The position numbers and the translations under genes are program-made. A stretch of 5,642 nucleotides of DNA from a virus (Duplodnaviria; Heunggongvirae; Uroviricota; Caudoviricetes): IMG/VR virus record IMGVR_UViG_2698536471_000011; one strand, written 5' to 3'. Positions within the stretch are counted from its first letter, which is position 1. The number at the start of each line of letters is the position of its first letter. Below are positions 5,145 to 5,642 of the stretch, piece by piece. Below the pieces are notes generated by a model that was given only the letters and a program-made list of their open reading frames with translations, searched no databases and was not told where the DNA came from.

Positions 5145-5323
5145 ACCCCGTCTCCCGTTATCCGGAAGCTGACAACAATAAAAAGCCACCAGTTAATTCC
5201 TGATGGCCCTGATGCATAAACGTCATAATACCTGACTGTTATGATTGACAATAATGATAATGTTTATATAGAAAGGTTCCCGATGTGTGTTACATATCAT
5301 TTCTCCACGGGGAATATCCCCAC

Positions 5324-5374
5324 GCCAGCGCAGACTCTTTTACCCGTTCTCTTCTGCGCTGGCTCTTTTTTATT
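5324..5374 (+). terminator. Plus-strand hairpin followed by a T-run, antisense to the late leader
   Basis: GCCAGCGCAGA (5324-5334) / TCTGCGCTGGC (5353-5363), an 11-bp perfect stem with an 18-nt loop, followed by TCTTTTTTATT (5364-5374). Only the plus strand carries the T-run. Confidence 0.4.
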
Positions 5375-5552
5375 ATGCTGCTGCATTTACCTCTGGCACC
5401 AGGCTTTCTATCTCAACACAATACGTGGTACTTCTTGTAACCAATATCATAACGATTAATCGACATAGAATTTCTCCCGTGTACAGGAACAGAGTTAAAA
5501 AGCCGGAACCGGAATCAAATCACAGGATGACCATCTGCCAGTGGCAGGTCAT

Positions 5553-5579
5553 AAAAAAAAGGCCGCGCCATGCGCAGCC
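5553..5579 (-). terminator. tR'-like intrinsic terminator of the late-operon leader
   Basis: On the minus strand: GGCUGCGC-aug-GCGCGGCC (8-bp GC-rich stem with one G-U pair) followed immediately by U8. It lies ~410 nt upstream of the holin start, matching the lambda tR'-to-S spacing as recalled. Confidence 0.5.
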
Positions 5580-5642
5580 AGAACTCACAAGGAAAATGAT
5601 AGAAGGAAATAACATTAGTGATGTACGCATGGCGCCTCCCGC

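Follow-up and report, generated by a model that had tools for sequence, protein, structure and literature searches.

The terminator ahead of the lysis genes in a lambdoid prophage remnant is very probably that of the small RNA gene pasD1

The minus-strand hairpin at 5579-5553, located upstream of the holin and endolysin genes in the DNA analysed here, is in all probability the Rho-independent terminator of pasD1, a cargo ("moron") sRNA gene that lies in sense orientation in a lambdoid late operon, between Q/pR' and holin. By the window we mean the whole stretch of 5,642 bp, which is a complete draft contig (LODF01000005.1, assembly GCA_001609815.1). The contig breaks off within pasD, of which the window therefore has only the 3´ half. 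The sRNA gene in front of the lysis genes has been described before and stands here in its usual context. A preliminary description of the window had interpreted the hairpin as part of a preserved late-operon leader of the lambda kind. This interpretation is partly supported: it is right in general, as the lysis genes lie behind terminators downstream of Q/qut, and it is wrong about the identity of the terminator and the position of Q and pR'.

The hairpin consists of the stem GGCTGCGC (5579-5572), the loop ATG (5571-5569), the return stem GCGCGGCC (5568-5561) and a run of eight T (5560-5553), so that the minus strand reads ...CCTTGTGAGTTCT GGCTGCGC ATG GCGCGGCC TTTTTTTT. Seven of the eight pairs of the stem (5579-5561) are G-C, with folding energy of -15.2 kcal/mol and z of -3.4 against shuffles. 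The strong GC stem with U8 is therefore present exactly where the preliminary description had placed it. In the PasD2/434 variant the G.U pair is changed to A-U and one loop base is altered, with the stem kept; altogether the terminator is conserved in five loci with changes that preserve its structure.

PasD1 is a 173-nt RNA (NC_011601, 1060260-1060432) from prophage PP4 of EPEC E2348/69 (PMC8550237, table S6), validated in that strain as an Hfq-associated sRNA by northern blot and RIL-seq (Pearl Mizrahi et al. 2021, PMC8550237). All 90 of the 90 nt of pasD contained in the window are identical to E2348/69 PasD1 (NC_011601). The 24-nt northern probe published for PasD1, CATGCGCAGCCAGAACTCACAAGG (PMC8550237, table S6), is the exact reverse complement of CCTTGTGAGTTCTGGCTGCGCATG at window positions 5592-5569. 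The published 3´ end, 1060432, falls on window position 5553, i.e. on the last U, and RIL-seq fragments of PasD1 end at 1060432-1060434 (PMC8550237). The window also has the 3´ stem-loop with poly-U that is characteristic of PasD and, just 5´ of the stem, the seed UGUGAG (5589-5584); the seed and its target motif CUCACA are given in fig. S5 and table S7 of the same study (PMC8550237).

The surroundings agree with this identity. According to Zhu, Shabalina and Storz 2026 (bioRxiv 10.64898/2026.05.13.724894), pasD adjoins Q and lies directly upstream of either the holin/lysozyme operon or a sialate esterase gene. Here Q is found upstream and the holin/lysozyme operon downstream, which is the PasD1 type of arrangement (in the PasD2 type the sialate esterase gene comes downstream), and 408 nt separate the last T (5553) from the holin ATG (5144), close to the ~410 nt estimated before. 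Between the U-run and holin, 420 of 421 positions (99.8%) are identical to PP4. The Q-to-holin module is matched at 98.5% by phage 2B8, the representative used by Zhu et al. (bioRxiv 10.64898/2026.05.13.724894). This module (at least 80% of its 2.5 kb) occurs in 269 complete E. coli genomes, and the piece from terminator to holin in 564. The EHEC homologue of PasD is EcOnc13, as given in table S6 only (PMC8550237). The coordinates of all features are collected in Table 1.

Table 1. Features of the window and of its exact flank. L009 is a flanked copy of the locus, numbered in late-operon orientation.
Feature	Sequence	Position	Strand	Basis or remark
SAR-type endolysin (RrrD-like lysozyme), 165 aa	window	4432..4929	-	PF00959, E 8e-46; annotation
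P21-type class II holin, 71 aa	window	4929..5144	-	PF04971, E 1.4e-32; RefSeq annotation; dual-start motif M1/M4
Second late-strand terminator-like hairpin, then UUUUUAUUGUUGU	window	5182..5210	-	ends 38 nt before holin ATG
Promoter-like site CTGACT-18-GATAAT	window	5232..5261	+	consensus scan only, weak evidence
Esr41-like sRNA gene	window	5284..5373	+	convergent with pasD, antisense to late transcript; own 11-bp terminator stem and U6
PasD1 intrinsic terminator and presumed Hfq-binding 3´ module	window	5553..5579	-	8-bp stem, AUG loop, U8
3´ 90 nt of 173-nt pasD1 sRNA gene	window	5553..5642	-	identity to E2348/69 PasD1; 5´ 83 nt beyond contig end
Target of published PasD1 northern probe	window	5569..5592	-	contains proposed seed UGUGAG
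IS3	L009	4976-6189		
Q	L009	6295-6918		
pR' (-35 to -10)	L009	6961-6989		
247-aa membrane ORF	L009	7171-7914		
DUF3927/TciB-like ORF	L009	8000-8158		
PasD 5´ end	L009	8199		corresponds to published 1060260
Window edge	L009	8282		
PasD terminator	L009	8345-8371		
Holin start	L009	8780		

The DNA beyond the right edge was read from L009, which comes from a 3.69-Mb contig of GCA_021082445.3 and contains the reverse complement of the window as an exact substring (8282-13923). Seven further flanked copies were inspected: an intact prophage of strain 2013C-3264 (L001), the copy of strain 2013C-4974 (L003), E2348/69 PP4 (L006), E2348/69 PP2 (L007, with a different Q type) and three short contigs (L010, L011, L013). 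The same flank was found in all seven, over the module or over the part of it that a short contig retained. The order of features in the exact flank and the window is IS3, Q, pR'/qut, the 247-aa ORF, the DUF3927/TciB-like ORF (the TciB label rests on PHROG and phage-record annotation), pasD1 with its terminator, the convergent Esr41-like sRNA gene, the second hairpin, holin, endolysin and a truncated Rz.

It was expected from the preliminary description that Q and the late promoter would lie just past the right edge, and their absence from the adjacent ~500 bp was named there as evidence to the contrary. Neither a Q-like gene nor qut is present in the first 500 bp of the exact flank, which are occupied by the 3´ end of the 247-aa membrane ORF, the DUF3927/TciB-like ORF and the 5´ 83 nt of pasD. 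The end of Q lies 1,364 bp past the edge, and pR' is situated 1,293-1,321 bp past it. By its own measure the prediction is refuted. Q is intact and of lambda type (PF03589, E 4e-58), with 202 of 207 residues (98%) identical to lambda Q. Its 3´ end and the promoter region match lambda pR'/qut nearly base for base up to approximately the transcript start, where divergence begins; counted by eye, qut differs at 4 of 21 positions from the lambda qut string taken from a phage record, and the -10 of pR' is GAAACT as opposed to TAAATT in lambda. Q and a qut-bearing promoter are thus found upstream on the same strand, as in the lambda leader. The prophage occupies the argU/DLP12 site, flanked by fimZ and ompT. 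Its early region is gone and IS3 sits directly upstream of Q, which has thereby lost its early operon. To describe the late-operon architecture as preserved goes too far: the proximal terminator of the 434 type is degenerate, and Q has been severed from the early operon by IS3.

All expression data refer to E2348/69, namely to its PP4 locus, 99.8% identical, and to PP2, not to the strain of the window. RNA-seq baseMean of pasD reaches 8652 for pasD1 (PP4) and 11017 for pasD2 (PP2), compared with 147 and 226, respectively, for the 247-aa ORF, 6 and 69 for Q, 5.4 and 3.5 for holin, and 3.9 and 3.2 for lysozyme. A short abundant RNA ends at the terminator and the lysis genes stay silent in lysogens, as would be expected of a working terminator; termination efficiency is here judged from RNA abundance at steady state, to which Hfq-dependent stability also contributes. 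The short terminated RNA that had been predicted does exist, as an RNA ending at the equivalent of 5553 is seen in E2348/69 PP4 by RNA-seq, northern blot and RIL-seq; it is PasD1 and no 6S-like leader.

PasD may be equipped with a promoter of its own. Its 5´ end lies 40 nt past the DUF3927 stop codon, and about 7 nt before this mapped end there is a candidate promoter, TTGACT-18-TAAAAA, the -35 hexamer of which is invariant in five loci. The consensus promoter scan made no call upstream of pasD, because the -10 hexamer TAAAAA is without the final T, and PasD2 was drawn as 3´UTR-like by Pearl Mizrahi et al. (PMC8550237).

The strongest competitor to this reading is that the PasD terminator acts as tR' de facto: the proximal terminator would have decayed, leaving the PasD terminator as the first effective stop for constitutive transcription from pR', and PasD would be largely a 3´-processed by-product of a 1.37-kb transcript. 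Several observations suit such a scheme. In phage 434 a hairpin (-13.3 kcal/mol, z -3.9, U8) follows closely on the Q gene of that phage, and the only promoter-proximal terminator candidate of our module is a degenerate copy of it, which does not form a hairpin here. No compact terminator was found between pR' and the PasD terminator. The 247-aa ORF is expressed about 25-fold above Q in PP4 (147 vs 6), and StxS sets a precedent of an Hfq-dependent sRNA made from pR'/tR' (PMC7547250). A lambda-like tR' between pR' and the 247-aa ORF was considered separately and rejected, since shuffled sequences fold just as well as this region (z -0.2 and +0.2).

However, PasD2 in PP2 is placed behind a better-preserved proximal terminator and yet matches PasD1 in abundance, and expression of the 247-aa ORF is similar in the two prophages, so that the output of pasD does not follow the state of the proximal terminator. 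Moreover, PasD exceeds the upstream ORF about 250-fold per nucleotide, the mapped 5´ end is preceded at suitable spacing by a conserved pair of -35/-10-like hexamers, and the -10 of pR' deviates from that of lambda. We therefore consider the by-product model rather improbable. The same low probability is attached to its broader version, in which the pasD terminator, ~1.37 kb downstream, is the first barrier after a decayed proximal tR', the two membrane cargo ORFs are expressed from pR' in lysogens, PasD is partly a by-product and the Esr41-like sRNA is a possible post-transcriptional brake on S. If it were true, PasD would represent a long-range version of StxS.

Returning to pasD1 as an sRNA gene with its own terminator, we also asked whether the RNA might be an mRNA, i.e. 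whether the terminator ends a cargo gene for a small membrane protein, encoded in the PasD region. In the record of phage 434 this region is spanned by a 62-aa CDS named "putative membrane protein", and in the window a 36-aa ORF with the Shine-Dalgarno sequence GGAGG starts at 5630. Both sense ORFs nevertheless continue across the terminator, with their stop codons about 30 nt beyond the RNA 3´ end, hence the terminated RNA is left without a stop codon. In addition, a 1-nt indel between PasD1 and PasD2/434 shifts the frame upstream of the common C-terminal part. The RNA itself is bound by Hfq, appears as second RNA in chimeras, and its seed fits the target motif (PMC8550237). With no family hits, the frame unconserved between PasD1 and PasD2 variants and the ORFs crossing the terminator, we rejected the 36-aa ORF and the 62-aa CDS of 434 as genes, and regard a coding role of the RNA as very unlikely.

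Even less credible, and already refuted by the flanking DNA, is the view that the terminator is tR' of a short constitutive leader, with the late promoter shortly past the right edge and Q immediately upstream, as in lambda. It draws on the strong terminator 408 nt before holin, as compared with ~405 nt between the end of the tR' U-run and S in lambda, and on the lambda-type Q and pR'/qut that do exist upstream on the same strand. The agreement in spacing is numerically true and was rightly noticed in the preliminary description. Nevertheless, the interval between lambda tR' and S shares no detectable sequence similarity with that between PasD and S (best blastn E 0.26), and the match must therefore be a coincidence. 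In lambda, tR' ends a leader of ~194 nt. A short leader would have its terminator ~200-260 nt from the late promoter; here the distance from pR' is ~1,375 nt. Q is not immediately upstream, and two ORFs and the 5´ half of pasD intervene between it and the terminator. The RNA that ends here does not start at pR' either, since the published 5´ end of PasD1 lies 173 nt upstream of its 3´ end and ~1,200 nt downstream of pR'.

A hairpin and T-run that arose by chance and have no function may be dismissed: although a loose consensus scan of the window yields 11 terminator-like sites where 5.6 are expected, which makes its individual calls cheap, the strict test, which asks on both strands for a hairpin of at most -14 kcal/mol immediately followed by 7 or more T, returns 5579-5553 as the sole site in the window, while 1000 dinucleotide shuffles gave a single hit (0.001 per shuffle), the site is kept in the five loci with its structure, and an RNA 3´ end has been experimentally mapped to it, so that we count this possibility as already refuted.

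The interval between terminator and holin, previously characterized as ~400 bp of non-coding DNA, is non-coding in the protein sense; it does contain an Esr41-like sRNA gene (5284-5373) and a second hairpin (5210-5182). The sRNA element scores 32.3 bits (E 0.003) against Rfam Esr41 (RF02676), which is below the gathering score of 102, and we thus regard it as a homologue or variant and not as a member by the rule of Rfam. It folds with -30 kcal/mol (z -6.0). The promoter-like site at 5232-5261 is, judging from its position, suitably placed to drive it. Expression of the element is documented in E2348/69, where RIL-seq fragments labelled "E2348C_1013" map to PP4 at 1060613-1060672 on the minus strand, corresponding to approximately 5313-5372 on the plus strand of the window, i.e. 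to the 3´ hairpin. In chimeras these fragments invariably take the place of the second RNA, and their partners include the entC 5´UTR (263) and the nlpD IGR (537). RNA-seq baseMean of E2348C_1013 in this strain is 2064, and it is 7.5-fold lower without hfq. The element occupies the same position as PasA and PasC in other prophages and has a similar terminator. The RNA is antisense to the late leader, and it may belong to the iron-related Esr41 regulon.

The second hairpin (5210-5182), followed by a U-rich tail, has folding energy of -15.8 kcal/mol (z -3.6), and the relaxed terminator test returned two sites where 0.15 were expected. In phage 434 a terminator is annotated at the equivalent position upstream of S. 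The sole annotated ORF of the interval is an antisense 132-aa RefSeq "hypothetical protein"; it has no Pfam or PHROG family and was rejected as a gene on this ground. The protein ORFs that lie over both sRNA genes look spurious.

A probable mode of operation of the locus is as follows. In the prophage state, the terminator would end transcripts coming from the candidate pasD promoter. It would also stop polymerases arriving from pR' or from a promoter of the cargo ORFs, with the result that the sRNA is made and S-R-Rz remain insulated. The cargo cassette would comprise the two membrane ORFs and pasD. Switching on the lysis genes would require Q-modified polymerase that has been loaded at qut, ~1.37 kb upstream, and passes both 5579-5553 and 5210-5182. 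Read-through of terminators by Q-modified polymerase is established knowledge of lambda Q. Since intrinsic terminators lie between pR'/qut and holin, Q-dependent read-through is the likely route to S-R expression. The antitermination-type control of lysis genes proposed earlier is in this respect upheld, given lambda-type Q, pR'/qut upstream on the same strand and terminators before holin; the terminator on which the proposal was built is nevertheless not tR'. As Q has been cut from its early operon by IS3, read-through would need Q supplied in trans from a resident prophage with the same Q/qut type.

The significance of these results lies mainly in correct annotation, and they are of little importance beyond it. 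What looks like a textbook "tR'" ahead of the lysis genes of a prophage can turn out to be the terminator of a cargo sRNA gene, and spacing alone is no evidence of homology with lambda. Doubtful protein ORFs have been annotated over the two sRNA genes by RefSeq and in the phage 434 record. The Esr41-like RNA is amply supported by Hfq RIL-seq in E2348/69 and is still hidden under a CDS label, therefore it deserves a name.

Among known systems, the closest one is PasD1 of E2348/69 itself, with which the window shares the 90-nt identity, the exact probe match and the same terminator. The whole PP4 locus shows the same order of lambda-type Q, 247-aa ORF, DUF3927, pasD1, ~409 nt and P21-type holin. 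There is no difference of substance, except that the window holds the 3´ half of the gene only and that the host prophage is here a heavily deleted remnant at the argU/DLP12 site. A more distant relative is STnc100, a Salmonella prophage sRNA. The full-length pasD locus, taken from the flanked copy, aligns with the Rfam model of STnc100 (RF02076) end to end, over model positions 1-206, with 37.5 bits and E of 4e-6; as 47 bits would be needed to reach the gathering score, the two are related without pasD being a member by the rule of Rfam. Common ancestry of both was proposed by Zhu et al. (bioRxiv 10.64898/2026.05.13.724894), and a different seed region is reported for STnc100 in the literature (bioRxiv 10.64898/2026.05.13.724894).

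The Esr41-like element has relatives as well. With Esr41, PasA and PasC it shares the core UUUCUCCA(C/U)GGGG...CCC and the GCCAGCGC/GCGCUGGC terminator, and like PasA and PasC it is positioned just upstream of holin in antisense orientation. Esr41 proper (EcOnc14) regulates iron-uptake genes (PMC5286369), to which the RIL-seq partner entC of the window element would fit. It differs in location, as it resides in SpLE1 and not in a lambdoid late region (PMC5286369), and in structure, as the terminator loop of the window element has 25 nt vs 7 and the 5´ hairpin has diverged. The adjoining numbers of EcOnc13 and EcOnc14 are only a hint of neighbourhood in SpLE1 of EHEC.

StxS (EcOnc15; Sy et al. 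2020, PMC7547250) resembles PasD as an Hfq-binding sRNA in a lambdoid late-operon leader, the terminator of which blocks late transcription in lysogens. StxS is, however, identical with the pR' transcript, which is terminated 258 nt further on and then processed to 74 nt (PMC7547250), whereas PasD starts ~1.2 kb downstream of pR' and its level does not follow the proximal terminator.

Finally, the lambda late leader and our locus have in common Q (98% identical), pR'/qut nearly identical up to the transcript start, and an intrinsic terminator ~400 nt before holin. The control logic would be expected to be the same, with Q-modified polymerase reading through. They differ in that the terminator is here found ~1,375 nt from the predicted transcript start, past two ORFs, and is part of an sRNA for which a separate 5´ end has been mapped.

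Opposite the late strand, the window carries a gene for an Esr41-like sRNA, accompanied by a promoter-like site (see the table). In the EPEC strain E2348/69, the identical sequence bears a CDS label, E2348C_1013. RNA of this sequence behaves there as an abundant Hfq-bound sRNA, represented by approximately 808,000 fragments in RIL-seq, and its partners include the entC 5´UTR and the nlpD IGR. The sRNA appears to have been left without a name so far.

Two protein ORFs lie over the sRNA genes, and both are doubtful. WP_033816266.1 runs antisense to pasD, the gene of the Hfq-binding prophage sRNA PasD1, and overlaps the Esr41-like sRNA. 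It found no match in Pfam and PHROG searches, and its copy in prophage PP2 of E2348/69 is a pseudogene; we regard it as probably a spurious ORF call. The 36-aa ORF inside PasD1 reads through the terminator of this sRNA. Its frame is shifted by a 1-nt indel in PasD2/434, the variant found in PP2 and phage 434, where a 62-aa CDS is annotated in its place. This ORF, too, is probably non-coding.

Features of the window and its right flank (L009, longer contig containing the window exactly; L003, copy in strain 2013C-4974)
Feature	Position	Strand	Remarks
CssrB 3´ hairpin, sub-threshold Rfam match	419-481	-	33 bits vs gathering score 76
IS009, sub-threshold Rfam match	508-679	-	86 bits vs gathering score 117
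453-aa leucine-rich-repeat ORF	991-2352	+	
285-aa fusion ORF	3066-3923	-	portal N-terminus + tape-measure protein C-terminal domain
Second terminator-like hairpin	5182-5210	-	-15.8 kcal/mol, U-rich tail
Promoter-like site beside Esr41-like sRNA	5232-5261	+	
Esr41-like sRNA gene	5284-5373	+	convergent with pasD
132-aa "hypothetical protein" WP_033816266.1	5287-5642, continuing past edge	+	RefSeq annotation
36-aa ORF MRTSLMLFPSIIFLVSSGCAWRGLFFMTCHWQMVIL within PasD1	5520-5630	-	GGAGG Shine-Dalgarno
Degenerate promoter-proximal terminator	L009 7040-7060 = L003 10757-10778		~1,230 bp right of window

The window is an entire draft contig, whose right end (5642) falls within pasD. It stops there likely because several of the genome's prophages carry copies of the upstream sequence (247-aa ORF, DUF3927, 5´ half of pasD), and this repeat broke the assembly.

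The portal/tape-measure fusion ORF is the mark of a large internal deletion of head and tail genes, and the exact fusion protein occurs on 14 public contigs. At ~4310-4330, a truncated Rz directly abuts the 3´ end of terminase gpA. The same junction is the exact point of IS3 insertion in strain 2013C-4974; the window and L009 have no IS3 there. Further left, the leucine-rich-repeat ORF has a homologous locus in O121, O26 and O103 genomes (~96% DNA identity), where the annotation names the type III effector EspK.

Phage 434 has a promoter-proximal terminator after its Q gene, ACCCGCTGCCGAGTGGGT followed by T8, whereas its equivalent in the lambda-Q module (lambda-type Q through pasD to holin) is degenerate, ACCTGCCGCCGAGTAG followed by T5. 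No compact terminator is left in the pR´-to-pasD stretch of this module. The second terminator-like hairpin of the window sits 38 nt upstream of the holin ATG, and phage 434 has an annotated terminator at the matching relative position.
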